From: an uncultured Rhodobacteraceae bacterium
Lineage (GTDB): Bacteria > Pseudomonadota > Alphaproteobacteria > Rhodobacterales > Rhodobacteraceae
Length of the DNA stretch: 64,000 nucleotides
Direction of reading: 5' to 3'
NCBI GenBank assembly: GCA_947497985.1
Contig: CANMIX010000013.1
Coordinates: 23,641-87,640 of the forward strand
Shown in pieces: positions 3,231-37,359 of the stretch. Each line of letters begins with the position of its first letter. Position 1 is the first letter of the stretch. The notes under the pieces are model-generated. The model did not search any database. It saw nothing but the letters and a program-made list of their open reading frames with translations, and was not told the origin of the DNA. Position numbers and translations under genes: made by a program.

Positions 3231-3499
3231 AGCTGGTCGCGCTTGCTTGGTGCCAAGATGCGTCATTCTGGTTCAAACGAAACCAGGTCAGATCGCCTTA
3301 GCCAAAAGCAGATCCTCAACGCCGTGTTTCTGATTTCTGAACATAAGCGGGCAGCCGTGACAGACGCGGTGCATGCCCCGCTTCAACAAGAAAATTCCCC
3401 TGCGCCAGCGCATTCCTCGCCAAGCAAGTTTCTAGCTGACAGCCCCTTGGTACCAGCTTTGGTCATGTTCATCGAAACACTCAAAGTGAGGATCAAAAA

Positions 3500-3697
3500 A
3501 TGGCTACTCAAACTCTGAAACTGAACGTCAAATCCGGTGAAAAAGACGGCAAGAACTTCTGGGACCGCTGCGGCGTCCTCTTCGTCAACACCGACGACAG
3601 CGGCAACATCAACTCGATCAACGTCAAACACAGCATGTTCCCCGATGTCGAAATGGTCGCCTTCCCGCGCCGCGATGACGATCCGGTCACCGAGTGA
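3500..3697 (+). CDS. small hypothetical protein (65 aa)
   Basis: ORF with a GAGGA-type RBS (gtgaggatcaaaaaATG). Followed directly by a strong hairpin. Vague resemblance to DUF736-type small ICE proteins (LKLNVK...), not secure. Confidence 0.4.
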   Translation: MATQTLKLNVKSGEKDGKNFWDRCGVLFVNTDDSGNINSINVKHSMFPDVEMVAFPRRDDDPVTE

Positions 3698-3705
3698 CCT
3701 CAGCG

Positions 3706-3728
3706 CCAAGGCGGGTCTCCCGCCTTGG
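3706..3728 (+). terminator. perfect 10-bp stem hairpin after the small ORF
   Basis: CCAAGGCGGG-tct-CCCGCCTTGG, 9 nt after the stop at 3697. The U-tract is weak (tcatacc), so it may be regulatory rather than a terminator. A second hairpin ATTTGCGG-N9-CCGCAAAT lies at 3760-3784. Confidence 0.35.
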
Positions 3729-3832
3729 TCATACCTGCGCCCCCCTGACGCTATGCAGGATTTGCGGATGCGAATCCCGCAAATAGCTGCTAGCAATACA
3801 GAAAAAACAATTTCGAGTAGGGACAACCTGTC

Positions 3833-6556
3833 GTGAATGCCGTTGAAATAGAAGAAGCCATTTCCGCGCTGGCGGAGCAACCGTTTGATGCGGTTGAATT
3901 TCCTTATGCTTTTCTGCTCGCCTTCGGCAACAAAGAAACCACGCTCAAACGTCTTCGCTCGGGCACATCGAACAAATCCGATCTGGACGGGGTTCTGCAA
4001 ACGAACAACATCCACCTGAAGCCCTGCGCGGCGGGCATGGTGTCTGAAACGCTGGCGGCGCTCAAATCCAGCCCCGCGACGACCAAAGCCAAAGCAAAAT
4101 TCATCCTCGCCACCGACGGACAGACGCTTGAGGCCGAGGATCTGAATAACGGCGACACCATCGCCTGTGACTTCAAAGAATTCCCCGATCACTTCGGCTT
4201 CTTCCTGCCGCTCGCAGGCATATCGACCGTCAAGCAAATCCGCGAAAGCTCGTTCGACATCAAGGCGACCGGCCGCCTCAACCGCCTCTATGTCGAGCTG
4301 CTGAAAACCAATCCCGATTGGGGCACAGCTGAGCGCCGCCATGACATGAACCACTTCATGGCGCGGTTGATCTTTCTGTTCTTCGCCGAAGACACCTCGA
4401 TCCTGAATGGTGAGGACCTGTTCACTGCTACCGTCACGCAAATGTCGGACAAAGACAGCTCGAACACCCACGAGGTGATCTCCGAACTGTTCCGCGCCAT
4501 GAACACCAAGATCGAGGACCGTCCCACTGCGAACCTGCCCCGCTGGGCTGAGACCTTCCCTTATGTGAATGGCGGGCTGTTTTCAGGCAGCACCGAGGCC
4601 CCCAAATTCTCCAAGATCGCGCGCAGCTACCTGTTGCACATCGGCTCGCTCGACTGGACCAAGATCAACCCCGATATCTTCGGCTCCATGATCCAGGCCG
4701 TGGCCGATGATGAAGAACGAGGCGCTTTGGGGATGCACTACACCTCAGTGCCCAACATCCTAAAGGTTCTGAACCCGCTCTTCCTCGATGATCTGAACGC
4801 ACAGCTTGAGGCGGCGGGGGACAACAAACGCAAGCTCGACAAACTGCGCTCGCGCATGTCGAAAATCCGCGTCTTTGATCCGGCCTGTGGCTCGGGCAAC
4901 TTCCTTGTCATCGCCTACAAGGAAATGCGCGCGATTGAGGCCAAAATTAACGCCTATTGCGGCGAACCCGATCGGCGCACGGAGATTCCGCTGACCAACT
5001 TTCGTGGGATCGAGCTGCGCGATTTCCCGGCCGAGATTGCCCGCCTTGCGCTGATTATCGCGGAATACCAGTGCGACGTGACATATCGCGGGCACAAGGA
5101 TGCACTGGCCGCCTTCCTGCCGCTGGATGCAGAGAACTGGATCACACAAGGCAACGCCTTGCGCCTTGATTGGCTGACTGTCTGTCCGCCGACTTCGCAA
5201 AAGGTCGACATGCGCGGCGAAGACCTGTTCATGTCCCCGCTAGAAAAGGCCCAGATCGATTTTAAGAACGAGGGCGGCGAGACCTATATTTGTGGTAACC
5301 CACCGTATATAGGTGATAAAAACCAATCGGCTGAACAAAAAAGCGATCTGAAACTCCTGGCCAGTGGCCAGAGAAACTCAAAAGCAATCGACTATGTTGT
5401 TGGTTGGATGTGGAAGGCGTCAGAGTACATAAAGCTGGGTGGGGCATTCGCATTTGTGACAACAAATTCGATTTGCCAAGGCATCCAGGTCCCGCTGATT
5501 TGGCCCAGAATTTTTGAGAACGGCCAAGAGCTGTTTTTTGCGCACAAAAGCTTCTATTGGCGCAACAGTGCCAGCAATAATGCTAATGTAATCTGCGTAA
5601 TTGTTGGTGTTCGGAATTGCATGAGCGGGAAAAAGTCCATTTTTGATGGAAGCATCGAAAAGCAGGCAGACAACATAAATGCTTATCTTGTCGATGGACC
5701 GAATGTTATTGTTCAAAAGCACTCTACCTCGATCTCAGATCTTCCGGCGATCGTTGCTGGGAACATTCCGCGCGACAAAGCGAACTTAATGCTTACGTCA
5801 GACGAGAAAGAGCGTTTGATAGCTGATGACCCCGAAGTGTCACAGATTGTTCGGAAAATATTGGGTTCGAAAGAATTCATCAACGGACTTGAACGGTTCT
5901 GTCTCTGGATACCTGACCAACTGGCAGACATTGCCTACGAAAACACGGTTATTCGCGAGCGCTTAGATCGGATTGTTGAATACAGGGAAAATGGAAGTGA
6001 GCGAGGAAAGCTTGGAGTTGCGACTCCGCACCGTTTTGAGAGAACAATTGTTGGCGAAAAAGATGCCATCATAATACCCCGGGTCTCCTCTGAACGACGT
6101 GAGTATCTTCCTGCTGGCCTTCTCGATAGTTCGACAATAATCTCCGATGCGGCGCAGGCGATTTACGATGCTCCGCTGTACACTTTTGCTGTTATTAGCT
6201 CTCGGATGCACATCGCATGGACTGGTTTGACAGCCGGTAGGATGAAGTCAGACTTCAGATATTCGGCGGGAGTTTGCTATAACAGCTTCCCAGTCCCTAA
6301 ACTGACCGAGAAAAACAAAGCGGACCTCACCCGCTGCGCCGAGGACATCCTGCTGGCCCGCGAGGCGCATTTCCCTGCCACCATCGCCGATCTCTACAAA
6401 CCCGACGCCATGCCCGAAAACCTCCGCGCCGCCCACGATCGCAACGACGAGGTGCTGGAACGTATTTACATAGGCCGCCGCTTCCGCAACGACACCGAAC
6501 GGCTGGAAAAGCTGTTTGAGCTCTACACCAAGATGACGACGAAGGCGGCGGTGTGA
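3833..6556 (+). CDS. MmeI/YeeA-like gamma-class N6-adenine DNA methyltransferase (907 aa)
   Basis: SAM motif VFDPACGSGNFLV. Catalytic NPPY (ICGNPPYIG, codons at 5297-5308). Size and order (N-terminal domain, MTase, long C-terminal TRD-like part) match MmeI-family layout. Confidence 0.8.
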   Translation: MNAVEIEEAISALAEQPFDAVEFPYAFLLAFGNKETTLKRLRSGTSNKSDLDGVLQTNNIHLKPCAAGMVSETLAALKSSPATTKAKAKFILATDGQTLEAEDLNNGDTIACDFKEFPDHFGFFLPLAGISTVKQIRESSFDIKATGRLNRLYVELLKTNPDWGTAERRHDMNHFMARLIFLFFAEDTSILNGEDLFTATVTQMSDKDSSNTHEVISELFRAMNTKIEDRPTANLPRWAETFPYVNGGLFSGSTEAPKFSKIARSYLLHIGSLDWTKINPDIFGSMIQAVADDEERGALGMHYTSVPNILKVLNPLFLDDLNAQLEAAGDNKRKLDKLRSRMSKIRVFDPACGSGNFLVIAYKEMRAIEAKINAYCGEPDRRTEIPLTNFRGIELRDFPAEIARLALIIAEYQCDVTYRGHKDALAAFLPLDAENWITQGNALRLDWLTVCPPTSQKVDMRGEDLFMSPLEKAQIDFKNEGGETYICGNPPYIGDKNQSAEQKSDLKLLASGQRNSKAIDYVVGWMWKASEYIKLGGAFAFVTTNSICQGIQVPLIWPRIFENGQELFFAHKSFYWRNSASNNANVICVIVGVRNCMSGKKSIFDGSIEKQADNINAYLVDGPNVIVQKHSTSISDLPAIVAGNIPRDKANLMLTSDEKERLIADDPEVSQIVRKILGSKEFINGLERFCLWIPDQLADIAYENTVIRERLDRIVEYRENGSERGKLGVATPHRFERTIVGEKDAIIIPRVSSERREYLPAGLLDSSTIISDAAQAIYDAPLYTFAVISSRMHIAWTGLTAGRMKSDFRYSAGVCYNSFPVPKLTEKNKADLTRCAEDILLAREAHFPATIADLYKPDAMPENLRAAHDRNDEVLERIYIGRRFRNDTERLEKLFELYTKMTTKAAV

Positions 6557-7311
6557 GCTTTGTGTTGAAACATATCTCTGTAGCAAAGGCATTGGCTTTG
6601 TTGGCCTTTGCGTGCGTCGCCCCATTTGTGAGTTTGGAAAACCCCTTCACGCATTGGGCTTGGCTCATCTTCGGCTGTCTAGCGATAACCATCGCAGCAT
6701 TGGAAGTTACTCACAATCGATCGCAAAACCTAGCGCCGGAAGAACAGGTGCGACAGTATTTGCTCGATTTCGATGGTTGGAAAAAAACTGAAAATGTAGA
6801 GCACTACGTGGCAGATCCCCAGTTCAGTATTCGCGAAGTCGAGAGCGATGTCTCATTGTCGTTCCAGCAGGAGTGGACGCGTGGTGAAATAGGCCGTCAC
6901 TATGATCACGGGAACGCTGCATTTTGTCTTGGTGTTTTTCACGGCTCAACGCTACTTCAAAAAATCCATTTAGTGTTATTCGATGGTGGCAAAAAGATCG
7001 CCGTCTCGCCGGACTGGAGCGCCATCGGAAAGGGCCGGATCTACTACTATGTCGCTGACAGTATCGAATATGCCTATCAAAGATTTCTCACTCGAGAGCG
7101 TATGACTGATCACTCTAAGGGCATAAACAACCCGGTTGGGTCAGGTTCAATCGACATCCCAGTTTTTGAGAATAAGTCTGAGCTTGAAAAATTTATGTCT
7201 CAGTACAGCATCGAACCAGTCGACTCGACCTCTGATGAGGAAGAGCAGAACAGGCTGTTCTTAGAGAATTTAGAGAAATATCGTTGTTTTAAAGAAGGTT
7301 GGGCCGTCTAG
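6553..7311 (+). CDS. membrane protein, two N-terminal TM helices plus soluble domain, unknown function
   Basis: GTG start overlaps the MTase stop (GTGA, 6553-6556). TM segments ALALLAFACVAPFV and WAWLIFGCLAITIAAL. Clearly AT-richer than its neighbours. Confidence 0.55.
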   Translation: MSFVLKHISVAKALALLAFACVAPFVSLENPFTHWAWLIFGCLAITIAALEVTHNRSQNLAPEEQVRQYLLDFDGWKKTENVEHYVADPQFSIREVESDVSLSFQQEWTRGEIGRHYDHGNAAFCLGVFHGSTLLQKIHLVLFDGGKKIAVSPDWSAIGKGRIYYYVADSIEYAYQRFLTRERMTDHSKGINNPVGSGSIDIPVFENKSELEKFMSQYSIEPVDSTSDEEEQNRLFLENLEKYRCFKEGWAV

Positions 7312-9365
7312 TGTCAAATTCAAAATCTGTTCCCTCCGTTTCCGTCACGTACGCGCAGAACCGCTCTTCCACTACCTCGAACGAGCTGGGCATGCGAAAG
7401 ATGCAAGAGCGCGCCTATGAGATGCGGGGTGAGCAGTATCTGCTAATCAAGTCGCCGCCCGCTTCGGGGAAATCGCGGGCGCTGATGTTCATTGCGCTCG
7501 ACAAGTTACACAATCAGAGTTTGAAACAGGCCATCGTGGTCGTGCCTGAAAAGTCCATCGGGTCGAGTTTTAACGACGAGCCGCTGAGCAAGTTCGGCTT
7601 TTGGGCAGATTGGCAAGTGAAGCCGCAATGGAACCTGTGCAACGCACCTGGCGAGGATGACGGTAAGGTGGGGGCGGTTGGACGGTTCCTTGAGAGTGAT
7701 GGTCAGGTGCTGGTCTGCACCCACGCGACGTTCCGTTTTGCCGTCGATAAATTCGGGATCGAGGCCTTTGACGATCGGGTGATTGCAGTGGATGAATTCC
7801 ACCACGTCTCGGCCAATCCCGACAACAAGCTCGGCGCGCATCTGGGCACGTTCATTGCCCGCGACAAGGTTCATCTGGTTGCGATGACAGGGTCGTATTT
7901 CCGGGGCGACGCCGAAGCCGTCTTGTCGCCCGAGGATGAAGCCCGGTTTGAAACGGTCACCTACACCTATTACGAGCAGCTCAATGGCTATGAGCATCTG
8001 AAGACGCTCGATATCGGCTATTTCTTCTACACAGGGTCCTATGCTGACAGCATTCTGGAGGTTCTGGACCCCGCCGAGAAAACCATCGTCCACATCCCGA
8101 ATGTGAATTCGCGCGAAAGCACCAAAGACAAGCACAAAGAGGTCGAGCATATCATCGACAGCTTGGGTGAGTGGAAGGGGCTTGATCCTGATACCGGTTT
8201 CCAGTTGGTCGAAACGCCCGAAGGCCGCGTGTTGCGCATCGCTGATTTGGTGGATGATGAGGCGGCGAAGCGTGACAAGGTTGCGAGCGCCTTGAAAGAC
8301 CCCGCGCAAAAAAACAACCGCGATCACGTTGACATCATCATCGCGCTCGGGATGGCGAAAGAAGGGTTCGACTGGATCTGGTGTGAGCATGCCTTGACCG
8401 TTGGCTATCGTGCGAGCTTGACCGAGATCGTGCAAATCATCGGCCGCGCGACCCGTGATGCCGAAGGTAAAATGAAGGCGCGCTTCACCAACCTGATCGC
8501 GGAACCCGATGCGGGTGAAGAGGCCGTGACCGAGGCCGTAAACGATACGCTCAAAGCCATAGCGGCAAGTTTGCTGATGGAGCAGGTTCTTGCGCCGCGT
8601 TTCAACTTTACGCCCAAGACACACACGAGCGGACCTGTCGAAGGTTTCGACTACGGTGAAGGCGGCTATGATCCCAATAAAGAGAACGTCGGATTTGATG
8701 CGGCCACAGGGCAAATCCAGATGGAAATCAAAGGCCTTGCTGAACCCAAAAGCGAATTCGCGCGACGTATCTGTGATGAGGACCTGAACGAAGTCATAAC
8801 CGCATTTGTTCAGGACAAAACGACGATTGAACGCGGGCTCTTTGACGACGAGATGGTCCCAGAGGAGCTAACGCAAGTGCGAATGGGCAAGATTGTCGGC
8901 ACCAAGTTTCCAGAACTTAATGCGGAAGACCAAGAAGCCGTACGCCAGCATGCAATCGCGGCTCTGAACCTCACCCAGAAAGCGAAAGAAATCGCACTGT
9001 CAGATGCAGAAGCGGATGAAACTGGCGGCAATACAGCCTTGATTGATGGTGTGCGAAAATTTGCGATGGATGTACGTGAGTTGGATATCGATTTGATCGA
9101 TCGCATCAATCCGTTCGGCGAGGCCTATTCGATCCTTGCGAAAACCATGAGCGAAGATAGCCTCAAACAGGTTCAGGCCGTCATTTCGGCGAAAAAGGTA
9201 AAGCTTTCGCCAGATGAGGCCCGAGACTTGGCCAAACGTGCAGTCAAGTTCAAGCAGGAGCGTGGACGGTTGCCATCGATCACCTCTGCGGATGCCTGGG
9301 AAAAGAAAATGGCTGAAGGCGTCGCCTTCCTTGCGCGCATGAAGCAGGAGGCAGCAAATGTCTAA
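7299..9365 (+). CDS. DEAD/DEAH-box (DExH) superfamily-2 helicase
   Basis: Motif I SPPASGKS, motif II VDEFHH, motif III MTGS, motif VI QIIGRATRD. The start is either TTG 7299 or GTG 7311; the latter overlaps the upstream TAG. Confidence 0.8.
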   Translation: MGRLVSNSKSVPSVSVTYAQNRSSTTSNELGMRKMQERAYEMRGEQYLLIKSPPASGKSRALMFIALDKLHNQSLKQAIVVVPEKSIGSSFNDEPLSKFGFWADWQVKPQWNLCNAPGEDDGKVGAVGRFLESDGQVLVCTHATFRFAVDKFGIEAFDDRVIAVDEFHHVSANPDNKLGAHLGTFIARDKVHLVAMTGSYFRGDAEAVLSPEDEARFETVTYTYYEQLNGYEHLKTLDIGYFFYTGSYADSILEVLDPAEKTIVHIPNVNSRESTKDKHKEVEHIIDSLGEWKGLDPDTGFQLVETPEGRVLRIADLVDDEAAKRDKVASALKDPAQKNNRDHVDIIIALGMAKEGFDWIWCEHALTVGYRASLTEIVQIIGRATRDAEGKMKARFTNLIAEPDAGEEAVTEAVNDTLKAIAASLLMEQVLAPRFNFTPKTHTSGPVEGFDYGEGGYDPNKENVGFDAATGQIQMEIKGLAEPKSEFARRICDEDLNEVITAFVQDKTTIERGLFDDEMVPEELTQVRMGKIVGTKFPELNAEDQEAVRQHAIAALNLTQKAKEIALSDAEADETGGNTALIDGVRKFAMDVRELDIDLIDRINPFGEAYSILAKTMSEDSLKQVQAVISAKKVKLSPDEARDLAKRAVKFKQERGRLPSITSADAWEKKMAEGVAFLARMKQEAANV

Positions 9366-10551
9366 GGGGTTCACCGACGAGGATGATGCGCTGCTCGCGG
9401 AACTTGGTGTTGAAATCGAGACCAAGAAGATTGCCGCACGTACCCCGCGAGAGGAACGTATTATTGCGGGCTTTGAAGAAATCCAGAGGTTTGTAGACAA
9501 GAATGGGCGCGTCCCTGGCCATGGCGACGACAAGGATATCTTTGAACGCCTCTTTGCGACCCGGCTTGAACGGCTGCGTGAACTTGGCGAGGGAAGAGAT
9601 CTGATTTCAGACATGGACCATCAAGGTCTTCTTGCTGCTGAAAACCCGGTCGAAGATACTGCCCTCGAAGATCTTGATGACGATGCATTGCTGGCAGAGC
9701 TTGGCATCGCCGTAGAAGCGCCATCCATTTCGGAACTGAAACACGTTCGCTCCACGTCGGAGAAAAAAGCTGCCGAGGAGGTTGCAGGGCGTGAAAAGTG
9801 TGAAGAATTCGACACCTTTAAACCGCTCTTCGAGCAGATTCAGAAGGAACTGGATTCTGGCTTACGGGAAACGCGTAAGTTTGAGCTTAAGGCTGAGATT
9901 GAACCAGGCCGTTTCTTTATCGTCGGAGGGCAAAAAGCCTACGTCGCGGAAATGGGCGACATAGAGCTTACAGACCACGGCCGAACAGATGCACGCCTGC
10001 GGGTGGTGTTCGACAACGGCACACAAAGCAAGATGCTCATGCGGTCGCTTCAGCGTGCACTCAATGCTGATGGGGATGCCGGGCGCAGGATCACAGAGCC
10101 GAATGCTGGCCCGCTGTTTGCCGACGAAACCGCTGAAGGTGATGAAGCGAGCGGAACCATCTATGTGTTACGAAGCCGTTCAGATCATCCATTGGTCGCC
10201 GCAAACCGAGAGCTTGTTCACAAGATTGGCGTGACGAGCAATGACGTTGAGAAGCGCATTGCGGGCGCGCAGCTTCAGACAACCTTCTTGATGGCCAAGG
10301 TTGATGTTGTAGCAACCTACGATCTCTACAATATCAATCGCAGCAAGTTGGAAACACTTCTGCACCGGATTTTCGCGCCAGCCCAATTGGATATCGAGAT
10401 TCCCGATCGACTTGGTCGCCCGATGAAACCAAGGGAATGGTTCTTAGTGCCTTTGTTCGCCATCGAGGAAGCGGTTGAGCGGATCAAGGACGGCACGATT
10501 TCGCGCTATGTGTATGACCCGAGCAACGCCGCACTAGTTCTGCGAGACTAA
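9358..10551 (+). CDS. T5orf172/GIY-YIG-superfamily domain protein (putative nuclease)
   Basis: ATG overlaps the helicase stop by 8 nt. C-terminal half has GTIYVLRS ... HKIGVTSNDVEKRI ... REWFLVP, typical of T5orf172 (MUG113-like) domains. N-terminal half is acidic, with a duplicated DDALLAELG motif. Confidence 0.7.
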   Translation: MSKGFTDEDDALLAELGVEIETKKIAARTPREERIIAGFEEIQRFVDKNGRVPGHGDDKDIFERLFATRLERLRELGEGRDLISDMDHQGLLAAENPVEDTALEDLDDDALLAELGIAVEAPSISELKHVRSTSEKKAAEEVAGREKCEEFDTFKPLFEQIQKELDSGLRETRKFELKAEIEPGRFFIVGGQKAYVAEMGDIELTDHGRTDARLRVVFDNGTQSKMLMRSLQRALNADGDAGRRITEPNAGPLFADETAEGDEASGTIYVLRSRSDHPLVAANRELVHKIGVTSNDVEKRIAGAQLQTTFLMAKVDVVATYDLYNINRSKLETLLHRIFAPAQLDIEIPDRLGRPMKPREWFLVPLFAIEEAVERIKDGTISRYVYDPSNAALVLRD

Positions 10552-10825
10552 CATAGGTGAATTTTGGGTGGAAACGGCCCTTAGCGGACCTTCGAACGAA
10601 GCGCAGCAGATGACCGCTGTCAGCTCTTTGCAGACCGTGGTGCAAGGCGCAGGATCGCTTGGCGCCGACACGACGGGCACAAAGCGGACGATCGGCACAC
10701 ATCGCAAAAAAATATGTGTTATACGCAGTTAGCGACCTTGGCTTCTCCCCACTAAAGCGGCCACCATCTGCGCCTAGATCAGGTATAGCCAAAAGGCTCT
10801 CAATACAGAGTTTCGGAGTATTATT

Positions 10826-12331
10826 TTGACGCGAATAATTGACTTGGAATTTTCTGCGGCAAGGACTTATCTGGAAAAGCCAGAATGCTATTTCCGGTCA
10901 GACTTCCCCCCGTACATCAGCTTTGAAGCTATCTTAAAGGATACGGCAGCGGTATTGGGCAGTGATACCTACCTTGCCTTCCAAAAGCCAAAGCCCAACC
11001 GTGCCGTTGACATATCTGGTGTCAATTATGAACTTCTGAGCACCAAAGATGGTCGCTTTGCTTGGCGACCGTTCGAGCTTATACACCCAGCAATTTACAT
11101 GACATTGGTTGGGATTTTTTGCGAAGAGGCAAACTGGAAGCTGCTTCAAGAACGGTTCGAGGAGCTTCACTCAGGTATAGTAGAATGCACCAGCTTTCCC
11201 ATGGCGTCAAATGGGGAAGACAAACATGATGCTGTCCAAGTTCGAAATTGGTGGCTGCGATACGAACAGCGCTCGCTAGAGCTATCAATGGACTACACAC
11301 ACCTATTGAAAACGGATGTGTCTAATTGCTACGGGTCACTCTATACGCACAGCATTGCATGGGCTCTGCACGGATACGAGGCCGCCAAGGCAGCCCAGAC
11401 TGACAAGAACCTGCTTGGAAACCAGATCGATTTCCACATTCGCAATAGCCGATATGGTCAGACGAATGGAATCACCCAGGGCTCCGTTCTTATGGATATC
11501 GTCGCTGAGTTGGTTTTGGCGTACGTCGATCACCTGATCACTGATAAGATTGAAGGAGAAAAGGATTTTCATATCCTTCGGTATCGTGACGATTACAGCA
11601 TCTTCACAGTGAATGATCAGCGGGCGTTCGAGATCGTCAGAGTGATTAGCGACTGTCTCAGGAAGGTTGGAATGCAGCTCGGCGCGGCAAAGACTTCGGT
11701 GAACAGCAATATCATTGAAGGCGCTATTAAGCCAGAAAAGCTGGCAGGTGTGCAACTCGAAGACATGGATATCACGCAAGCTAAGACCGTTCAAAAGCAG
11801 CTATTGCGACTACACGCGTTTGCTCGTTTGTATCCCAACACTGGCGCAATCAAGCGGCTAGCGGATGCTGCGTTCCAAAAGATATCGAAGATCACTGAGC
11901 CCCCCGAAGATTTGGGCGTTCAGGTGGCGATTTCTTGTGATATCGCTGTGGTTTCGCCCGGCGCTTTTCCTGCCATATCGGGCATTCTTGCCAAGTTGAT
12001 TTCGCTTGCGCCAGAACCGGATCGCCCGGAGATGTGGGGAAGGGTCGCTGAGAAGATGAAGAGGATACCGCACAACGGTCACCTCGAGGTTTGGCTACAG
12101 CGGGTCACAAAGGCGAAAGGTGTTGAGCTCGCCTTTGCAAGCACCGAGCCGATTTGCGAGATAGTCAACGGTAAAAGTGTTCAGCTGTGGAACAATGACT
12201 GGACTAGCAGTCCCGATCTACTTGCTGCCCTAGATGTTTCCAAGATCGTTGTTAGCAGTCCGGGAGATCTCGACCCAGTTCCGGATACAAGTGAGCTTTC
12301 TCTTTTCCGTGAGTACGCTGAATTCTCCTAG
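10826..12331 (+). CDS. stand-alone reverse transcriptase, Abi/UG (defence-associated) type
   Basis: RT motifs TDVSNCYGSLYTHS, GITQGSVLMDIVAELVL, YRDD (11582-11593) and GAAKTS. About 170-aa helical C-terminal region. TTG start. No endonuclease, maturase-like or Cas domain seen. Confidence 0.75.
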   Translation: MTRIIDLEFSAARTYLEKPECYFRSDFPPYISFEAILKDTAAVLGSDTYLAFQKPKPNRAVDISGVNYELLSTKDGRFAWRPFELIHPAIYMTLVGIFCEEANWKLLQERFEELHSGIVECTSFPMASNGEDKHDAVQVRNWWLRYEQRSLELSMDYTHLLKTDVSNCYGSLYTHSIAWALHGYEAAKAAQTDKNLLGNQIDFHIRNSRYGQTNGITQGSVLMDIVAELVLAYVDHLITDKIEGEKDFHILRYRDDYSIFTVNDQRAFEIVRVISDCLRKVGMQLGAAKTSVNSNIIEGAIKPEKLAGVQLEDMDITQAKTVQKQLLRLHAFARLYPNTGAIKRLADAAFQKISKITEPPEDLGVQVAISCDIAVVSPGAFPAISGILAKLISLAPEPDRPEMWGRVAEKMKRIPHNGHLEVWLQRVTKAKGVELAFASTEPICEIVNGKSVQLWNNDWTSSPDLLAALDVSKIVVSSPGDLDPVPDTSELSLFREYAEFS

Positions 12332-12631
12332 TTATGACGTATGAAAATTGGCTGGCGTTAGCATGTTCGTAGGCCAGTTCCGGAAACCTCATATCTGCAA
12401 GTATAACGGGCGCACCGCTTACTACTCTCCGCCGTATTGTCCAGAAAAATCGGACTGTAACTGTTGGCGTAAGATGATAATGAACCCACGCTCAAGCGCG
12501 CGGGCAATATTTCCCAATTGACTGCACCGGGGTTCAACGGGCCGTTGGCCTGCTCACCCCGATCCAGGCATCATTCTATTTGTTTGGTCCGCCCAACATC
12601 CCTGACCGGGGCGGTCAACCTTAGTCCATCC

Positions 12632-12706
12632 CCAAAATCAGCCACCAATTTCCCCTGTCTCGCAGGCGAGCCATTCCTCGCGCGACAAATTGGCGTCTGA
12701 TTTTGG
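12632..12706. repeat. long imperfect inverted repeat in the non-coding region upstream of ardC
   Basis: ccaaaatcagccaccaattt (12632-12651) pairs with aaattggcgtctgattttgg (12687-12706) at 18 of 20 positions. The loop is 35 nt. Confidence 0.6.
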
Positions 12707-12896
12707 CGCAGACATTTTCTTCGCAAATGTGGCCGATTGACAGCCCCGTTCAGGGCCGTGGGTCGGGCTTTGCCCTCTCCCACTCTGTTCCGCCGAATAC
12801 ATGCGTATTCGGTCAGATCAGGTGGCCGAGGCGCAGCCCATCGGCGGAAGGGGGCGCAAAGCCTCACCCGCGTCACTTTGATCAAGGAGGCCACAA

Positions 12897-13775
12897 ATGG
12901 CACCGAAGTTTGATGTTTATGCCCATGTCACCGAAACCATTATTGCAGAGATTGAGGCAGGCACTCCGCCATGGCGCAAGCCTTGGACTGGGAGCGCGTC
13001 CGGCATTGCCCTGCCGACCCGCCACAACGGGGAGGAGTATCGCGGAATTAACGTCCTGATGCTCTGGATCATGGCGGCCAAGCATGGCCATGTGTCCAGC
13101 CGCTGGATGACTTATAAACAGGCCCAAGAGCTGGGCGGTCAGGTCCGCAAAGGCGAAACGTCGTCGACAGTGGTGAAGTACGGGACGTTCACACGAGAGA
13201 ACGAGTTGGGCATCGAGGAAGAGCTGCCCTATGCGCGCGCCTATCGCGTGTTCAACGCGGATCAGATCGAAGGTTTACCGGAGGATTACTACATCCGGCC
13301 CGAGGCCCCGCGCGACCTTGGGACGGCCGAAGATCCTGAGCTTGAGGCGTTTTTTGGCCGGACAGGGGCGGAGATCCTCACCAGCGACGACCCGCGCGCC
13401 TATTACAGCCCCGCCAAAGATCACATCCATATGCCGCCGATCGCCACGTTTCACGATGCGGCAGGCTACTATGGGACTTTGGCCCATGAGGTGATCCATT
13501 GGACTGGCAGCGAAAAGCGGTTGGAGCGGATCAAGAAATTTGCGAACCGCGAAGCCTATGCCTTTGAAGAGCTGGTGGCGGAAATCGGTGCTTGTTTCCT
13601 TGGGGCTCAGATTGGCGTCGCGCCGGAGTTCGACCAAAGCGCCGCTTATGTTGAAGGTTGGTTGAAAGCGCTCAAAGAGGACAAAAAGGCGATTTTTCGG
13701 GCAGCGTCTGAGGCCCAGAAGGCAGCCGATTTTGTTTTGCAAGCAGCAGGTCAGAGCAAGGAGGTGGCAGCATGA
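12897..13775 (+). CDS. ardC: ArdC-like antirestriction protein (ssDNA-binding N-domain plus zincin metalloprotease)
   Basis: PPWRKPW motif near the N-terminus. HEVIHW (HExxH) in the C-terminal half. AAGGAGG RBS before the ATG. Confidence 0.85.
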   Translation: MAPKFDVYAHVTETIIAEIEAGTPPWRKPWTGSASGIALPTRHNGEEYRGINVLMLWIMAAKHGHVSSRWMTYKQAQELGGQVRKGETSSTVVKYGTFTRENELGIEEELPYARAYRVFNADQIEGLPEDYYIRPEAPRDLGTAEDPELEAFFGRTGAEILTSDDPRAYYSPAKDHIHMPPIATFHDAAGYYGTLAHEVIHWTGSEKRLERIKKFANREAYAFEELVAEIGACFLGAQIGVAPEFDQSAAYVEGWLKALKEDKKAIFRAASEAQKAADFVLQAAGQSKEVAA

Positions 13776-13975
13776 TCCCGGACTATCACAGCGATGATTA
13801 TTCGACAGCACGTCTGGAAGACACTGTCAGCTTGCGAAGTGCCGCCCGTGAGGCCCGCGCAACGCTTTACGCGGTGTTGAACCGGCTGGAGCTGAACGAT
13901 CTGGAGGGCGAGGAGCAGCCCTATATCGACGATTGCCTTGGGGCTCTCGCAATTCTTGAGGAAGCGTTGCGATGA
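13772..13975 (+). CDS. small acidic hypothetical protein (67 aa)
   Basis: ATGA start/stop overlap with ardC. Codon usage matches the backbone. Confidence 0.5.
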   Translation: MIPDYHSDDYSTARLEDTVSLRSAAREARATLYAVLNRLELNDLEGEEQPYIDDCLGALAILEEALR

Positions 13976-14196
13976 CCTTGGCAGGCATCAAGGCAGCAGT
14001 GGACGCGGGCAACCGCGTTCATTGGGTCAACAGCGGGTATGTGGTGACGCGTGATGACCTCGGGCAATACCTCATCACTTTCACGCGAAACGGGTCGGCT
14101 ATCGGTTTGACCAGTTGGGATGGCACCCGCCTGAACGGCAAGCCTGACGAATTTTTCATCGGGGAAAACGCCGAGGTTTGCCATGAAGTATTCTGA
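13972..14196 (+). CDS. small hypothetical protein (74 aa)
   Basis: ATGA overlap with the previous ORF. Same strand and operon. Confidence 0.5.
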   Translation: MTLAGIKAAVDAGNRVHWVNSGYVVTRDDLGQYLITFTRNGSAIGLTSWDGTRLNGKPDEFFIGENAEVCHEVF

Positions 14197-19098: not shown

Positions 19099-21375
19099 AT
19101 GAAAAGGCTTGGAAATCTGTCACCTCCGGATTTTGAAGATCTGTGTCGTGATATCCTGCAAGCTGAAACCGGTCAGCGATTTTCTGCGTTTGGCGCGGGA
19201 GCTGATGGCGGTATTGATGGCAGGCATTCCAAGGGTCCTAAGTCGACCATTCTTCAGTGCAAGCATTATCTGAATTCAACGTTTTCTCAGTTGAAGTCGG
19301 CTTTGAAAAAGGAAGTGCCGAAGATCGATCTTCTGAAACCAAGTCGTTACATTTTCTTGACGTCTCAATCGTTGACACCTGCACGCAGCGACGAACTGGC
19401 AGATGTGTTAGGTGATCGCCTCAAACATTCGGAAGACATTTGGAGTGCGGAAGACATCGAGGCCGCGCTGAAGCGTCACCCCGACATCGAAAAGGCACAT
19501 CTGAAACTCTGGATGACCAGTACGGCAGTTTTGGAGAAGGTGCTGCAGTCAGGTCTTGAGGCCCACACAGCAGCGACCAAAGCTGAAATCTTGGACGAGT
19601 TGCGAGTCTATGTTCGTAACCCAAGTTTTGACGCCGCGTTTGAAACGCTCGAACGACATCGTGTCCTCGTTGTGTCTGGCCCGCCAGGGGTGGGAAAGAC
19701 CACGTTGGCCAAAATGCTCACATATCACTATCTCAATGACGATTGGCAGTTTTGCGCGATAAGATCTCTCGACGATGGCTTTGCCAAACTTGATGAGGAA
19801 AAGCGAACCATCTTCTTCTTTGATGACTTCCTTGGACAGATTGAGCTTGATCGCCAAGCACTTGTTCAACGGGATGGGCAACTTGCGAGATTTGTGAAAC
19901 GCGTTAGAGCTTCCAAAAACTCTCGTTTCATTCTTACCACGCGCGCACACATTTTTGAGGAAGCACGACGGCTTTCAGATCATATGGATGAGGGCCGCTT
20001 CCAGCTTTCAAAATTTCTGCTGGATGTCGGTCAATATACTCGCGCAATCAAAGCGCGCATATTGTTCAACCATCTTGCCGCATCAGATTTGAGTGGCGAA
20101 CACATAGAAGCTTTGCTTCAAGGTGACTGGCTGAAGAAGATCGTCGACCACCGAAACTATAATCCGCGCCGAATCGCTCATGCTGCCGCAGAGTGTCCTG
20201 AGGGCTTGGAAGCATCCGCCTATCCGACATTTGCTTTCAAGACCCTAGAAAATCCTGCTCCGATCTGGGCAAAGGCATACCGCAGTCTCAGTATACGCTG
20301 CCAGAACCTGCTTGTGGCTCTCTACTTCGGCAATCAGTATGGCCAGTCCATTGAGGTTCTGCGGGAAAACTACAACGCGATACACAATAAGATATGCGAA
20401 CACTATTCACAGCCGTCAAAGCCAGAGGACTTCGAAGAAGCTCTTAAATCACTCGAGTCTGGTTTTGTTGCAATATCGGATCAGCAGGTCCGGTTTGTGA
20501 ACCCATCAGTCCGCGACTTTCTCAAAGAGCATTTATCTGATGCAGATTTTCTGGGCCTGCTGCCGACTTTTTGTGTTCGAGCTGAATGGGCACAGAACCT
20601 ATGGATTCACTTGAAGCATAGGTTCCAGACCGATCCTGATAAACTGAAAACGCTGGCGCTGGCATTCTTCCAATTTGCAAACAAACTGGACCAAATTCCC
20701 AACTTCGCAAAGGTAAAGTCGAAACAGTACAATTATTGGTTCCGCGAACTAGTTGACCTTTCTATCTCTGAGCGCGGATCCCTTCTGTTCGACCTGTTTG
20801 AGCAATCTGACGACCGTAGCTTTCTCGATGCCGCGATCTCAGTTGTGAACAGCGAGGTTCTTGGGATCGAAGCGTCACGTGATTCCAGAGACCTACCGGA
20901 ACTTCATTGGAGGGTTTCCAACTTTGTCGATGATGATGTGGAGGGCAAGGCGGTCCTGCTCACGTCAGTTGAGGTCGCTCTGGTGAAGGCGATCGAAGCT
21001 GGCGTCCCGATGGACGAGTTGGTCGCAGTGAATGACGCCATAAACGAGTACCTTGATGAAGCTATTGATCTCGGCCCCATCGAGGACGCGATCAATTCCG
21101 CGATTGACTATGAGTTTGATGAGATTTCAGAAAGAATCTCTGACCTTTCGTCCGAAAGTGAGCTGAATGAGCACCTAGAGATGCTGGAGTTCATTGCACA
21201 ACACACTGATCGAAGTGCCGAGACTGCGAAAATGGTGATACTAGAGAAAATCAGTGAAAATGAAGTGCCTGACTATGATGACTACCAACCGAGTTCTCGC
21301 GGGCGAAGTAGTCACGTTGATGCAGAGTTTTCCGACAATGATCTCGTAAGCTTGTTCTCGACTCTTTCGAAATAA
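19099..21375 (+). CDS. Mrr-like restriction-endonuclease domain fused to a P-loop STAND-like NTPase (758 aa)
   Basis: N-terminus FEDLCRDIL...GAGADGGIDG...ILQCKHY (Mrr_cat-type core). Walker A VSGPPGVGKTTLAK. Walker B IFFFDDFLGQ. Helical, very acidic C-terminal region. AT-richer than the backbone. Confidence 0.7.
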   Translation: MKRLGNLSPPDFEDLCRDILQAETGQRFSAFGAGADGGIDGRHSKGPKSTILQCKHYLNSTFSQLKSALKKEVPKIDLLKPSRYIFLTSQSLTPARSDELADVLGDRLKHSEDIWSAEDIEAALKRHPDIEKAHLKLWMTSTAVLEKVLQSGLEAHTAATKAEILDELRVYVRNPSFDAAFETLERHRVLVVSGPPGVGKTTLAKMLTYHYLNDDWQFCAIRSLDDGFAKLDEEKRTIFFFDDFLGQIELDRQALVQRDGQLARFVKRVRASKNSRFILTTRAHIFEEARRLSDHMDEGRFQLSKFLLDVGQYTRAIKARILFNHLAASDLSGEHIEALLQGDWLKKIVDHRNYNPRRIAHAAAECPEGLEASAYPTFAFKTLENPAPIWAKAYRSLSIRCQNLLVALYFGNQYGQSIEVLRENYNAIHNKICEHYSQPSKPEDFEEALKSLESGFVAISDQQVRFVNPSVRDFLKEHLSDADFLGLLPTFCVRAEWAQNLWIHLKHRFQTDPDKLKTLALAFFQFANKLDQIPNFAKVKSKQYNYWFRELVDLSISERGSLLFDLFEQSDDRSFLDAAISVVNSEVLGIEASRDSRDLPELHWRVSNFVDDDVEGKAVLLTSVEVALVKAIEAGVPMDELVAVNDAINEYLDEAIDLGPIEDAINSAIDYEFDEISERISDLSSESELNEHLEMLEFIAQHTDRSAETAKMVILEKISENEVPDYDDYQPSSRGRSSHVDAEFSDNDLVSLFSTLSK

Positions 21376-21484
21376 CTCTCCTGCTCCAATGATTCTGCGT
21401 TTTCTCATAAAGGGCACTTGACTTAGCTTGTGGCGAACCAACAGCGGCCCATCGCTGTTCGGCATTTATAAGGACATTAGTTTA

Positions 21485-24187
21485 ATGGCATTTGAGGAAC
21501 TTATTACTTGGTCAGATCAAAAAGTACGGCCGGATTGGCAAAAGGATGCGCTTCGGCGGCTGGCGACAACAGGCGAGTTGAGCAAAGAAGACTTGTCGGA
21601 CCTACGAAAGGTTGTTGAGAAGGCAACAGAACTGATCGACGACGAGGTCGCTGCGGTTACTCCCCTAGCTGCGGAGTACCTATCTGATCCGGCAGCCGAC
21701 GCCCCACGCACAATTCTTGGTGCGATTGGACCTGTCCGTCGGGTAGACCGGCTAGCAGGCGACCAGCCTCCGATCAAATTCGCGAAAAATGGGATCACAC
21801 TTGTTTATGGTGCCAATGCATCAGGTAAGAGCGGCTACTGCCGAATAGCTAAACAGCTTTGCAGGTCTCTCAGTCCTCAAGACCTCAAAGGCAATGTTTA
21901 TGAGGCCGCCTCAGCCGACCCACCAGAAGTTGACCTTGTGTTCGGCATGGAAGGCGACGAACCCGATCGCCAAGAGGCAACCTGGCGACATGGCGATCCG
22001 TCTCCGGCAGAACTAGCAAGGATATCCGTATTCGATACGGCGACGGCGCGCGTTTACGTAGACAAAGACCGCAAGGTTGAATTCCTACCCTACGAGCTCG
22101 ACCTTTTGAACAAGCTCGCTCTGGCAGCAAAGGCGCTGGACGGTGATTTTGAGGTGCGGGAAAACGGGATCGATGCGGCGATCCGTACGCCACTGCCTGC
22201 TGGTTATACGGATGGCACCGCTGTCTCGCAGGCTCTTGCAAAACTCGTCCCTGAAACAGAGCTAGCCGATCTTCCCGATGAAGCGGGCCTGCGCGCGCTC
22301 TCCGTATGGAATGATGAAAAGGAGGCCGATCTCCAGAGCGTCAGCGATGAAATTCGCGATGATCCTAAGGAGCGGCTGCGGTCTCACAGATTGGCGAAGC
22401 AGGGGCTAGAGAATATAAAGACCGCGCTTTCCGGTCACCTTGGACTTCTTGCCGATGATGGCGTTGCCAAGATCAAAGATGCCCACACCGATATGACGAC
22501 AAAGGCCGAGGCGGCCAAGACAGCAGCCCAAGGTCTGGGAGAAGGGATGCCGATCCCGGAAATCGGTTCGGAATCCTGGCGAAAGATGCTGATCTATGCC
22601 CGCGACTTTGCCGGTGAAGCTTTCCCTGTGCGCGATGACCCCAAGCTGGCCACTGGCGAATCCTGCGTCCTTTGTCAGCAACCTTTGGAGGATGACGCAG
22701 CTTCACGGATGGCGAGGTTCGATGAGTATATTTCTGGGCGCACTGCCAGCGACAGTCAGAAAGCCACAGAAGACTACGAGGTGCTTGTCGCTTCGATCAA
22801 TGCTCTCCGCCTTGGCACGCAGGATCAAACCAAAGCGCTTCTTGGCGTTTATGGCGGGTTGAGCGATGACCATCAGGCTTTTGTCGATGAGATTACGCTT
22901 GGTTACCATGTTCTTGCTTCACGTCTTGAGGCGGTGAAGGCGATGATCGCAGCGGGCACTTTTGATGGGGCGGATGCTTTGGAAGCTGTCCAAGTCGATC
23001 TCATCCAAAAGATCGATGCAGCGCTTGAAAACCTGCAGGCGCAGATCGATGTTCTTGAAAACGCAGATGCCGATGAAGAGCGCATGAAAACGCTCGCATC
23101 CGAAAAGGCAGAGCTCGAAGATGCAAAGAAGCTGAGTCAGGAGATCGAAATTGTGGTCGCCCGGTTTAAGCAGCTCGTGGAGCGGCTCAAGATCAAAGAG
23201 GCGCGCAAGCTGTGTGCGTCAGGTCCCATTGCGCGCCAGCTCACGGCCCGTCGCCGTGTCATATTGACCAAGAGCCTGAAAACGCAGCTCACAGAAGAAC
23301 TGGAAACTCTCAAACTCTCGCATATTCCCATCGATCTCTCCGACCGCAGTGCGGGCCCTGACAGTGTTATTGAAGTTGGCCTGACTGCCCATCAGCGTGT
23401 GGCAAACAACAGCGATGTGCTCAGCGAGGGTGAACAGAGAGCGCTCGCGTTGTCATGTTTCCTTGCCGAACTGATCGAGGTTGGTGCCGAACACGGCATT
23501 ATAGTCGATGATCCGGTTTCCTCGCTGGATCACTCCCGAATGGAAGCTGTGGCAAAGCGGCTTGTGGCGGAGGCTTCGGCTGGCCGCCAGGTCATCATCT
23601 TTACGCACAATATCGTGTTTCATTACATGATGGAGAATGAGGCACGCCGTGCCGATATTCCCTGCCATACCGAATGGATGTCGAGTCTAGGTGGAACCAA
23701 ATTCGGGATTATTGATGACTCGGGTAAGCCGAACCACACCAAGAAGGCAAAGCAACGCATCGGCGAGCTCAACGAAGCTAAGGCTAAATTGTATAAGGAC
23801 GGTTATGATCCGGCGGTTCAGGAATTTCGCGATCCGCTCACGGCCATCTATACGCTAATGCGCGAAACCTGGGAGCGGATCGTCGAAGAAATCCTGTTCA
23901 ACGGTACGATCCAGCGTTTTCGTCCGGAGGTAATGACCCAAAGCCTAAAGCATGCTTGCTATGATCCCGCAGATGATTATCCGGCGATTTTCGAGGGCAT
24001 GAAGCGATGCTCGCATCATTCCGGGCACGATAGGGCGGCAGACTTGCCACAGGAGCTACCTGAAAAGGTAGATATTGATGCTGACCTGCAGGCCCTTGTC
24101 GAATTTCACAAGAAGGTCTCTGACCGAAAGGCCGTTCTCGAGAAAGGACATAGCTATGAGAAAGGTCCTGAGCCAGAGTTCCTTTGA
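21485..24187 (+). CDS. ABC/SMC-type ATPase with coiled-coil CxxC hook and RloC/PrrC-like C-terminal region
   Basis: Walker A YGANASGKSG (21809-21832). Signature LSEGEQRAL. Walker B IIVDDPVSSLD. H-loop FTHN. About 480 aa of coiled coil between the head halves, with CVLC at 22664-22675. Tail carries RETWE and KRCSHHSGHD. ATG 21485 is preferred over TTG 21428. Confidence 0.7.
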   Translation: MAFEELITWSDQKVRPDWQKDALRRLATTGELSKEDLSDLRKVVEKATELIDDEVAAVTPLAAEYLSDPAADAPRTILGAIGPVRRVDRLAGDQPPIKFAKNGITLVYGANASGKSGYCRIAKQLCRSLSPQDLKGNVYEAASADPPEVDLVFGMEGDEPDRQEATWRHGDPSPAELARISVFDTATARVYVDKDRKVEFLPYELDLLNKLALAAKALDGDFEVRENGIDAAIRTPLPAGYTDGTAVSQALAKLVPETELADLPDEAGLRALSVWNDEKEADLQSVSDEIRDDPKERLRSHRLAKQGLENIKTALSGHLGLLADDGVAKIKDAHTDMTTKAEAAKTAAQGLGEGMPIPEIGSESWRKMLIYARDFAGEAFPVRDDPKLATGESCVLCQQPLEDDAASRMARFDEYISGRTASDSQKATEDYEVLVASINALRLGTQDQTKALLGVYGGLSDDHQAFVDEITLGYHVLASRLEAVKAMIAAGTFDGADALEAVQVDLIQKIDAALENLQAQIDVLENADADEERMKTLASEKAELEDAKKLSQEIEIVVARFKQLVERLKIKEARKLCASGPIARQLTARRRVILTKSLKTQLTEELETLKLSHIPIDLSDRSAGPDSVIEVGLTAHQRVANNSDVLSEGEQRALALSCFLAELIEVGAEHGIIVDDPVSSLDHSRMEAVAKRLVAEASAGRQVIIFTHNIVFHYMMENEARRADIPCHTEWMSSLGGTKFGIIDDSGKPNHTKKAKQRIGELNEAKAKLYKDGYDPAVQEFRDPLTAIYTLMRETWERIVEEILFNGTIQRFRPEVMTQSLKHACYDPADDYPAIFEGMKRCSHHSGHDRAADLPQELPEKVDIDADLQALVEFHKKVSDRKAVLEKGHSYEKGPEPEFL

Positions 24188-35582: not shown

Positions 35583-35692
35583 CACCTGTCCTCACGTAGA
35601 GAAAGATGCCTTTCAACAAAGCGGCGGCGAAGGTCGCCAACGCGCTGACGAAGTGAAATTGCGCTGCGACTGAACCAACGTCGACTTTCCAA

Positions 35693-36082
35693 CTAGCGGG
35701 CTTTTAAAGCATCCAACATCGGACAGTCGCTTTGTCCCTTTGCGCAGTTCGCGACCAGCTCGACCAGAGCCTTCTCAAGTTTCCGAAGCTCCGCCAGTTT
35801 CGCCTGAACGTCCGAGAGATGCTTGCTTCCAAGTCGCTCGACCGTCTCACATGCATCGGACGGTGCATCGGCGAGATTGCGAAGCGCAACTGCGTCTTGG
35901 ATGGAGAACCCAAGATCACGGCATCGTTTGATGAAGCGAAGCTCTGAAATCTCAGTGTCCGAATAAGCTCGTCGCCCAGAAGCAGTGCGGACTGCCTTTG
36001 ATATTATCCCCTCACGCTCATAGTAGCGGATCGTCTCTATTGAAACGCCACTAAGGCGGGATGCCTCACCAATCGCAATCAT
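35693..36082 (-). CDS. merR: MerR-family metal-responsive regulator (Hg-type cysteine pattern)
   Basis: HTH IGEASRLSGVSIETIRYYEREGI. Cysteines in DAC and NCAKGQSDCP. Divergent from merT-like genes. Confidence 0.8.
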   Translation of the reverse strand: MIAIGEASRLSGVSIETIRYYEREGIISKAVRTASGRRAYSDTEISELRFIKRCRDLGFSIQDAVALRNLADAPSDACETVERLGSKHLSDVQAKLAELRKLEKALVELVANCAKGQSDCPMLDALKAR

Positions 36083-36103
36083 GTGATCGAACTCCGCTTG
36101 CTT

Positions 36104-36118
36104 CTGTAGTGACTACAG
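36104..36118. promoter_or_regulatory. MerR-type operator dyad in the divergent promoter
   Basis: CTGTAGT-G-ACTACAG, a perfect palindrome between a TTGCTT -35-like hexamer and a TAAGAT -10-like hexamer with a long spacer, as in MerR-activated promoters. Confidence 0.65.
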
Positions 36119-36135
36119 GATGCATAAGATCAGCC

Positions 36136-36519
36136 ATGATGTCGAATACTGAAACTCTTCAAGATGAAACCAATGGGCCAAACCGACTGCTGATCGGCGG
36201 CGCTGGTCTGTTGGCTTTGCTAAGCGCATCCTGCTGCGTATTGCCGATTGGCCTTTCAATCATAGGGCTGGGTGGCACGTGGCTGGTTTTGCTTGGGCCA
36301 TTTGTCGAGTATCGCACCGAGATATTGGTTGTCGTGGGACTTGTACTTGCTTGGGGATGGTTCCGCCTTTGGCGGCGTTGGGCATGCGCAAAACGCAGGC
36401 GCTCAACTGTCGTTATGCTTGGCTTCACGACGCTGGCTTTCGCTCTCGCTGCCAGTTCACCTCTCTGGGAAGAAGACGCGGCGAGGACGATGTTTGCCTT
36501 GTTTAGGCAGTATCGATGA
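36136..36519 (+). CDS. MerT-like mercuric-ion transport membrane protein
   Basis: ATG 36136. First TM carries the vicinal cysteine pair LSASCCVLPIG, as in MerT/MerF. Confidence 0.65.
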   Translation: MMSNTETLQDETNGPNRLLIGGAGLLALLSASCCVLPIGLSIIGLGGTWLVLLGPFVEYRTEILVVVGLVLAWGWFRLWRRWACAKRRRSTVVMLGFTTLAFALAASSPLWEEDAARTMFALFRQYR

Positions 36520-36725
36520 GGGGCTGGTTGCTTCCACTGAGCCTGGGCGGTTTGGGATTGGCCGCGGTCTGCTGCCTGACGCCTTTTCTACCATGGCTGT
36601 TTTCGCTTCTTGGGATCAGCGGAGCACTCGGTTACGTCTATAGAGACGACGTGCTGCTGCCAATCCTTGCTGGATTTCTACTACTTACAGGATACGCGCT
36701 ATGGCGACGCAAACGAGCGAAGTGA
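36516..36725 (+). CDS. small two-TM protein with CC pair (MerF/MerE-like transporter)
   Basis: 69 aa. AAVCCLTPF motif in TM1. ATGA overlap with the previous gene. Confidence 0.55.
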   Translation: MRGWLLPLSLGGLGLAAVCCLTPFLPWLFSLLGISGALGYVYRDDVLLPILAGFLLLTGYALWRRKRAK

Positions 36726-37342: not shown

Positions 37343-37359
37343 GAAGAAACCTCTTGAAC

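Follow-up and report, generated by a model that had tools for sequence, protein, structure and literature searches.

The 64,000-nucleotide stretch of DNA analysed here (the window, whose numbering we use throughout) comes from an uncultured Rhodobacteraceae bacterium and carries, at positions 10826 to 12331 of the + strand, a gene for a 501-residue reverse transcriptase (RT)-like protein. This RT gene, the feature under study, begins with a TTG codon, and a Shine–Dalgarno sequence (GGAG, 10815 to 10818, + strand) can be read directly from the sequence 7 nt 5′ of it. The start call is sound because the N terminus of the protein agrees in the alignment with the family consensus MKRIIDL. The protein belongs to the Abi-P2 family of Class 1 UG/Abi RT-like DNA polymerases, of which it is an intact and ordinary representative. 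Overall, the locus is best explained, with high probability, as a single-gene Abi-P2 anti-phage module on a 1.84-kb cassette in the cargo region of an integrative and conjugative element (ICE). A preliminary description of this DNA had recognised an RT of the Abi/UG type and held its subgroup to be unassignable by eye; the type is upheld by family profile, solved structure and predicted fold, and the subgroup can now be named as Abi-P2.

The protein has a predicted bilobal organisation. Residues 1 to ~295 (10826 to 11710, + strand) form an RT-like domain of fingers and palm, as delimited by the Pfam RVT_1 match, an AlphaFold2 (AF2) model and alignment to the RT-like domain of Abi-P2 (PDB 7r08). 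RVT_1, at residues 142–293, is the sole domain that a Pfam search finds, and the search returns no nuclease, nitrilase, Cas or maturase domain. The catalytic motif Y253-R-D-D256 (RT motif C) is encoded at 11582 to 11593 (+ strand), and the motif A catalytic aspartate, Asp164, lies within the segment KTDVSNCYGS (codon 11315 to 11317, + strand). A predicted priming tyrosine, Tyr30, has its codon at 10913 to 10915 (+ strand), and the segment GITQGSVLMDIVAEL occupies residues 215–229. Residues ~296 to 501 (11711 to 12328, + strand) are predicted, from the AF2 model and superposition on 7r08, to form an all-helical α-solenoid that replaces the thumb.

The gene is AT-richer than its surroundings, with a GC content of 0.499, where the rest of the ICE has 0.562, and a GC content at third codon positions of 0.549 against 0.67–0.69 for backbone genes. 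It stands 274 nt downstream of an ORF (open reading frame) that stops at 10551 and 565 nt upstream of ardC, which begins at 12897. All of this agrees with the preliminary description, which had given the same 501-residue ORF and the same gaps, the YRDD motif and the second motif at residues 215–229, a helical C-terminal region and a composition AT-richer than the backbone, and had seen no nuclease, nitrilase, Cas or maturase/endonuclease domain.

RT-specific hidden Markov models, which the preliminary description had proposed for classification, place the protein in Abi-P2 from end to end. The PADLOC AbiP2 profile matches with 562.4 bits (E=2.2e-169), aligning residues 1–498 with profile positions 4–487 of 489, and the runner-up PADLOC models score 162 (Drt6), 160 (UG14) and 136 bits (Drt4), with AbiK at 101 bits. 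As a control, the family prototype, ORF570 of the Escherichia coli prophage P2-EC30, scores 536.8 bits on the same profile with the runner-up models in the same order, and two relatives at ~53% identity score 618–638 bits. A tblastn search of phage records recovers the RTs of P2-EC30 and P2-EC58 at 28–29% identity over 99% of the query, and the top PDB sequence match is Abi-P2 7r08 (E=5.6e-58, residues 2–462). Given the family-profile E value and more than 2,300 homologues found, the identification lies far beyond chance.

Fold comparison points the same way. The AF2 monomer model, built from 34 homologues (pLDDT 82, pTM 0.83), superposes in Foldseek on all six chains of 7r08 over its full length, with TM scores of 0.79–0.83 across ~520 alignment columns. 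Scores fall to 0.55–0.61 for DRT4, DRT6 and UG15, to ~0.5 for AbiK and to ~0.4 for AbiA. The predicted fold has palm and fingers but lacks a thumb, and ends in the α-helical solenoid that is specific to Abi-P2; the last palm strand of the model (residues 291–293) is followed by about 12 helices, with no strand of three or more residues after 293.

Residues required for catalysis and priming are retained. We used two alignments, A1 (14 sequences, reaching down to 28% identity) and A2 (34 sequences). Tyr30, Asp164, Arg254, Asp255 and Asp256 are invariant in both, and Tyr253 is invariant in A1 and nearly so in A2; Y(R/V)DD is the active-site signature of Abi RTs (PMC8632793). The segment FPPY30ISF aligns with LPAY61INF of the prototype, in which the Y61F substitution abolishes synthesis and Y46F does not (PMC9508834). 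Prototype Tyr61 sits on the loop that joins fingers helices α2 and α3 (PMC9508834), and in the AF2 model Tyr30 is predicted to occupy the corresponding position, on a loop (residues 23–33) between helices 19–22 and 34–44. The conserved residues and the placement of the Tyr30 loop suggest that the catalytic and priming apparatus is intact.

Other RT families fit poorly. No NCBIfam model reaches its own cut-off with this protein, so NCBIfam apparently holds no Abi-P2 model. Its Drt4 model gives 125.9 bits against a cut-off of 450, over residues 79–293 only, and Drt2 (20.9 bits), Drt3a (26.7) and Drt3b (112) are likewise under their cut-offs. Membership of DRT4 or DRT6 is ruled out by the Drt4 score and by PADLOC scores of 136–162 bits against 562 for AbiP2. 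That the protein is instead the RT of a group II intron, a retron or a diversity-generating retroelement (DGR) whose RNA element was overlooked is effectively refuted. Such an origin could appeal to weak similarity in the RT domain, which yields 42 bits with the group II intron model TIGR04416 and 28.7 bits with the retron St85 RT model, scores that fall well short of the 300- and 235-bit cut-offs. The fold similarity is also low (TM ≤0.36 for group II intron, ≤0.38 for group II intron/retron, and ≤0.4 with DGR and telomerase RTs, against ~0.8 for Abi-P2), and there is no maturase or endonuclease domain. Rfam detects no intron or msr/msd RNA, the flanks are unstructured, there are no repeats of the template/variable-region type, and no neighbour recurs in the 81 related loci surveyed below.

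Four independent lines of evidence establish that the RT gene is truly solitary. It lies within a cassette of 1,841 bp (10575 to 12415, + strand), a unit exchanged between elements, which is 98.4% identical to positions 3242–5081 of a related ICE, L083. That element encodes a 99%-identical protein (P0001), although its backbone is only 87–89% identical to that of the window ICE. Both junctions of the cassette are sharp in this comparison. L083 has the cassette in another slot, flanked by the integrase side and the type IV secretion system (T4SS) side, where it replaces window positions 35689–44697. That a dedicated mechanism, in place of ordinary homologous exchange, carries it from one ICE cargo slot to another is conceivable but unlikely. 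A search for DGR-like or cassette-flanking repeats found only short matches at chance level.

The position of the cassette bears on whether the RT is one component of a larger multi-gene system together with the upstream operon at 3833–10551. In favour of such a system, operon and RT gene share a strand with 274 nt between them, the scan shows no terminator-like + strand site in that interval, and all of the genes are defence-like. The cassette boundary at 10575, however, falls 24 nt past the stop codon of the T5orf172 gene that ends the operon, and L083 has the cassette without any operon gene. None of the 81 related loci shares these neighbours, and AbiP2 has been described as a stand-alone protein (PMC9226505). 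A joint system with the operon is accordingly a highly unlikely reading.

The 81 related loci, drawn from many phyla, were surveyed by clustering all ORFs of at least 70 residues within 4 kb of the RT. No neighbour family recurs among them and no hidden partner gene was found; the commonest neighbour, an ABC-type ATPase, occurs in 7 of the 81, at inconsistent positions and on inconsistent strands. DNA similarity to relatives does not reach past the ORF, except that it runs a short way upstream in the closest ones and 44 nt downstream in L005. The absence of an adjacent effector gene, as the preliminary description had it, is thus corroborated by the survey and by the movement of the gene as a single-ORF cassette.

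Distant relatives carry marks of a further mode of mobility. In at least 13 of them an integron attC core of GTTRRRY-like sequence precedes the ATG by about 30 nt (L018, L026, L027, L028, L034, L036, L046, L049, L056, L058, L062, L070 and L074). The R′ core reads GTT(A/C)GG(C/T), and in two of these loci (L034 and L049) its distance is ~60 nt. These homologues are ~50% identical and come from diverse phyla. Both loci looked at closely have an upstream imperfect palindrome and an R″ box, which is exact in L026 and near-consensus in L056; the latter also has an attC-like site 3′ of the RT stop codon (9520–9645) whose single-stranded DNA (ssDNA) fold gives z=-8.1. The motif repeats at cassette-like spacing in several loci. 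From these cores, R″ boxes, palindromes and spacings the distant relatives look like single-ORF integron cassettes, and the family seems, on this sequence evidence, to circulate in that form. Such circulation agrees with published work on integron-borne defence cassettes (Kieffer 2025 and Darracq 2025, as relayed in PMC13434031); a literature search aimed at integron cassettes with an RT yielded general accounts of defence cassettes and nothing more specific. Abi-P2 homologues are also present on 118 plasmid records, and AbiP2 has been placed in Class 1 of the UG/Abi RTs, with multi-domain stand-alone proteins that move readily across mobile genetic elements and are frequent on plasmids and prophages (Mestre et al., PMC9226505).

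The flanks of the gene within the cassette are short. The 5′ flank (10575 to 10825, + strand), with no conserved ORF and no supported non-coding RNA (ncRNA), is presumed to hold the promoter and 5′ untranslated region (UTR), and the 84-nt 3′ flank (12332 to 12415, + strand) is common to L083 with 4 differences. Between the two ICEs, 13 of 251 nt differ in the 5′ flank and 13 of 1506 nt in the ORF; the flanks are thus ~5% diverged against 0.86% for the ORF. Two small ORFs at 10568–10732 and 10659–10829 were rejected as genes, since comparison with the 98%-identical copy in L083 shows a 1-nt indel at 10706 that disrupts them both, as was a third (12348–12521), which crosses the cassette boundary. 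On the + strand, the one terminator-like site that a consensus scan returned is weak and falls within the ORF (10870–10884).

The preliminary description had left open whether such an RT is protein-primed and template-independent or uses a neighbouring ncRNA. The first of these options is favoured by the Abi-P2 assignment. Use of an ncRNA as template or scaffold, as in DRT2, DRT3, DRT9, DRT10 and retrons, drawn from the 251-nt 5′ flank or the downstream gap, is most improbable. Both intergenic gaps are fairly long, and alignment A3 reveals a leader block of ~100 nt (10728 to 10825, + strand) that contains TTGGCT (10738–10743), part of a 6-nt inverted repeat TTGGCT/AGCCAA, the palindrome AGCCAAAAGGCT (10787–10798) and the Shine–Dalgarno sequence; the block is kept in the five closest relatives, which share non-ATG (TTG/GTG) starts. 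Yet the block is absent from relatives at 80% amino acid identity or less, and the covariation term that RNAalifold assigns to the leader of this sub-clade is unfavourable (+2.24), with 1 of 20 pairs compensatory. An Rfam scan of 9000–14000 finds no match at E≤1, and neither the 5′ flank (z=-0.20) nor the 3′ flank (z=+0.72) folds better than dinucleotide shuffles. The flanks have diverged more than the ORF, the downstream gap from ~12733 is backbone DNA found on plasmids that do not match the RT region, and the prototype polymerises in vitro with no nucleic acid present (PMC9508834). The ncRNA-dependent Class 2 UG/Abi groups (DRT2, DRT3, DRT9 and DRT10) were also rejected as assignments, as the Drt2, Drt3a and Drt3b profiles stay below their cut-offs and the flanks lack structure or covariation.

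We read the leader block as a promoter/5′-UTR inherited within a young sub-clade. That it is a functional RNA or operator gating the polymerase, which would make this marine sub-clade an RNA-regulated or RNA-assisted form of Abi-P2, is unlikely, and so is the related idea of dedicated cassette mobility.

Some observations weigh against a conventional Abi-P2 defence module. The protein is only 28–29% identical to the single characterised member, so its trigger, product length and outcome could differ. The ~100-nt leader block is common to the five closest relatives (at least 85% amino acid identity), and a consensus scan of the 5′ flank finds no σ70-like promoter. How untemplated ssDNA excludes phage is unsettled even for the prototype (PMC12783706). 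Taken together, the rival explanations keep only a small share of the probability, and we favour a single-gene Abi-P2 module.

Only the first 84 nt of the 565-nt downstream gap belong to the RT cassette. The last 160–170 nt (~12733–12896) are conserved conjugative-backbone DNA 5′ of ardC: they are 80–89% identical to DNA on ~24 plasmids, mostly from Rhodobacteraceae, lie directly 5′ of ardC homologues where checked, and are more conserved than the ardC coding sequence (72–77%). A plasmid megablast with the whole region matched only the ardC side and not the RT. Positions 12620–12900, which include a 20-nt inverted repeat (12632–12651 and 12687–12706), fold as ssDNA far better than shuffles (z=-6.1) and are a candidate origin of transfer (oriT) or leading-region single-strand promoter/regulatory element of the conjugative backbone. 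Between the cassette end and the block upstream of ardC, ~317 nt (12416 to ~12732) have no match in L083 or the plasmid collection and contain no convincing ORF; they may be what is left of a previous insertion of cargo.

The window carries an ICE of ~47.5 kb integrated in tRNA-Cys. Sequence comparison identifies its att sites as 49-bp exact direct repeats (359–407 and 47847–47895), the right copy being the 3′ part of tRNA-Cys (47849–47922, - strand) and adjoining the tyrosine integrase gene of the backbone (46749–47780). Other backbone genes encode ArdC, a relaxase, a type IV coupling protein (T4CP) and VirB4/6/10/11-type T4SS components. The preliminary description's placement of the RT on an ICE beside other immunity modules is therefore well founded.

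The defence-like cargo includes HipA, an operon headed by an MmeI-type enzyme, the RT, Mrr-nSTAND3 and AAA_13. The operon (3833–10551) has four genes with overlapping stop and start codons, lies upstream of the RT on the same strand, and encodes an MmeI-type IIG restriction-methyltransferase (907 residues), a 252-residue protein with a PDC-S50-like match, a DEAD/ResIII helicase (688 residues) with a C-terminal PMBR repeat and a T5orf172/MUG113 GIY-YIG-like protein (397 residues). It may be a composite defence system of restriction–modification plus helicase–nuclease type. Downstream of the RT, between the T4CP and T4SS genes, are an Mrr_cat-nSTAND3 NTPase (19099–21375; PADLOC PDC-S73, E=5e-132) and a 919-residue AAA_13/SMC-like ATPase (21428–24187; PDC-S06, E=2e-164), PDC families being candidate and not validated defence families. 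A second cargo slot between the T4SS and the integrase side (35689–44697) holds a copper/metal-resistance block with genes for a MerR regulator, a cation-efflux protein, a multicopper oxidase, CopD and cytochrome c; the same slot in L083 (3183–5246) holds the RT cassette only. In the window this slot is ruled out as a defence hotspot because of its metal-resistance genes, and the L083 location therefore lends no guilt-by-association support.

Residence on an ICE near ardC, the relaxase and a strongly structured conserved region, possibly an oriT or leading-region element, could mean that the RT serves the mobile element, through addiction, stabilisation or conjugative establishment, or is a neutral passenger. 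Addiction or anti-defence roles have been raised for some UG/Abi RTs borne by mobile elements (Mestre et al., PMC9226505). For the window RT we consider a role in the element, or that of a passenger, very unlikely. In L083 the cassette is far from ardC and the relaxase, so its position is not tied to the transfer region; the catalytic residues are conserved; the Abi-P2 family is enriched in defence islands (PMC9226505); and the prototype excludes phage T5 (PMC8632793).

A defence function for the window RT is suggested by homology, and protein-primed, template-independent ssDNA synthesis leading to abortive infection is its likely mode of action by analogy with the prototype. The prototype forms trimers with hexamer potential, built from two-lobed protomers with RT-like palm and fingers, no thumb and a C-terminal α-solenoid (Figiel et al., PMC9508834), and it polymerises DNA without template or primer (PMC9508834). 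For its exclusion of phage T5, the region that codes for the YRDD active-site motif is required (PMC8632793). By extension, the window protein would assemble into trimers or hexamers, and synthesis would be primed by the Tyr30 hydroxyl, from the loop that joins fingers helices 2 and 3. The site formed by Asp164, Asp255 and Asp256 would then extend random-sequence ssDNA without a template, the product staying covalently bound to the protein. On phage infection, the activity or its product might become toxic, or phage replication might be blocked, giving an abortive-infection-type outcome; neither an ncRNA nor a second protein would be needed. The most speculative step is the switch. In DRT4 and DRT6, ssDNA is made constitutively and removed by a host 3′–5′ exonuclease until a phage ssDNA-binding protein protects it, whereupon it becomes toxic (PMC12783706). 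A phage ssDNA-binding protein that shields the product from the host exonuclease may likewise be the switch here, although carrying that model over to the window RT is speculation.

For annotation, the gain is that a solitary RT becomes an Abi-P2, a family already modelled by PADLOC and DefenseFinder, and its presence on an ICE amid defence genes is as the literature predicts. Annotation software now in use would name the gene automatically. A useful if minor addition is that the gene travels as an autonomous 1.84-kb unit between two cargo slots of related marine ICEs, and elsewhere apparently as an integron cassette. This mobility is clean comparative evidence that neither a partner gene nor an RNA is required by Abi-P2. 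The clade is abundant in Rhodobacteraceae and only ~28% identical to the one enzyme studied, and could provide a second, divergent model for how untemplated, protein-linked ssDNA stops phage.

Set against known systems, the window RT adds a divergent but typical protein to a family that is known and structurally characterised. Its closest counterpart is Abi-P2 of the E. coli prophage P2-EC30 (ORF570; PDB 7r08; Odegrip 2006; Figiel 2022), which matches the same profile end to end and is predicted to share its two-lobe architecture of RT-like fingers and palm, no thumb and C-terminal helical solenoid (TM ~0.8). The priming tyrosine, motif A aspartate and YRDD are kept in both, and both are single genes, AT-richer than their surroundings, in the variable cargo region of a mobile element. 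They differ in length (501 against 546 residues, at 28–29% identity), with the window protein lacking the 31-residue N-terminal extension of the prototype, which is disordered in the crystal, and several C-terminal insertions. They also differ in setting, an alphaproteobacterial ICE and a TTG start in the one case and a P2 prophage in the other. In the P2-like phage pro147 (L002, 1556–5545), an Abi-P2 homologue adjoins a retron Ec48-type RT and its membrane effector, placing two different RT-based defences side by side in the P2 hypervariable region.

DRT4 (UG15) and DRT6 are second-tier matches in profile and fold. They too are single-gene Class 1 proteins with a helical C-terminal domain that synthesise ssDNA in a protein-primed, template-independent manner, an activity that the window RT probably resembles, and their activation model is the best available analogy (PMC12783706). 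Their profile scores, however, are 3–4 times below that of AbiP2, and the alignment is limited to the RT core. AbiK of Lactococcus lactis (PDB 7r06/7r07) is also a protein-primed untemplated polymerase built of trimer units, with its tyrosine primer on the same fingers loop (PMC9508834), but its similarity to the window RT is confined to the RT core (101 bits; PDB E=5e-10 over residues 161–272; TM ~0.5), and its helical domain has no sequence homology to that of the window protein.

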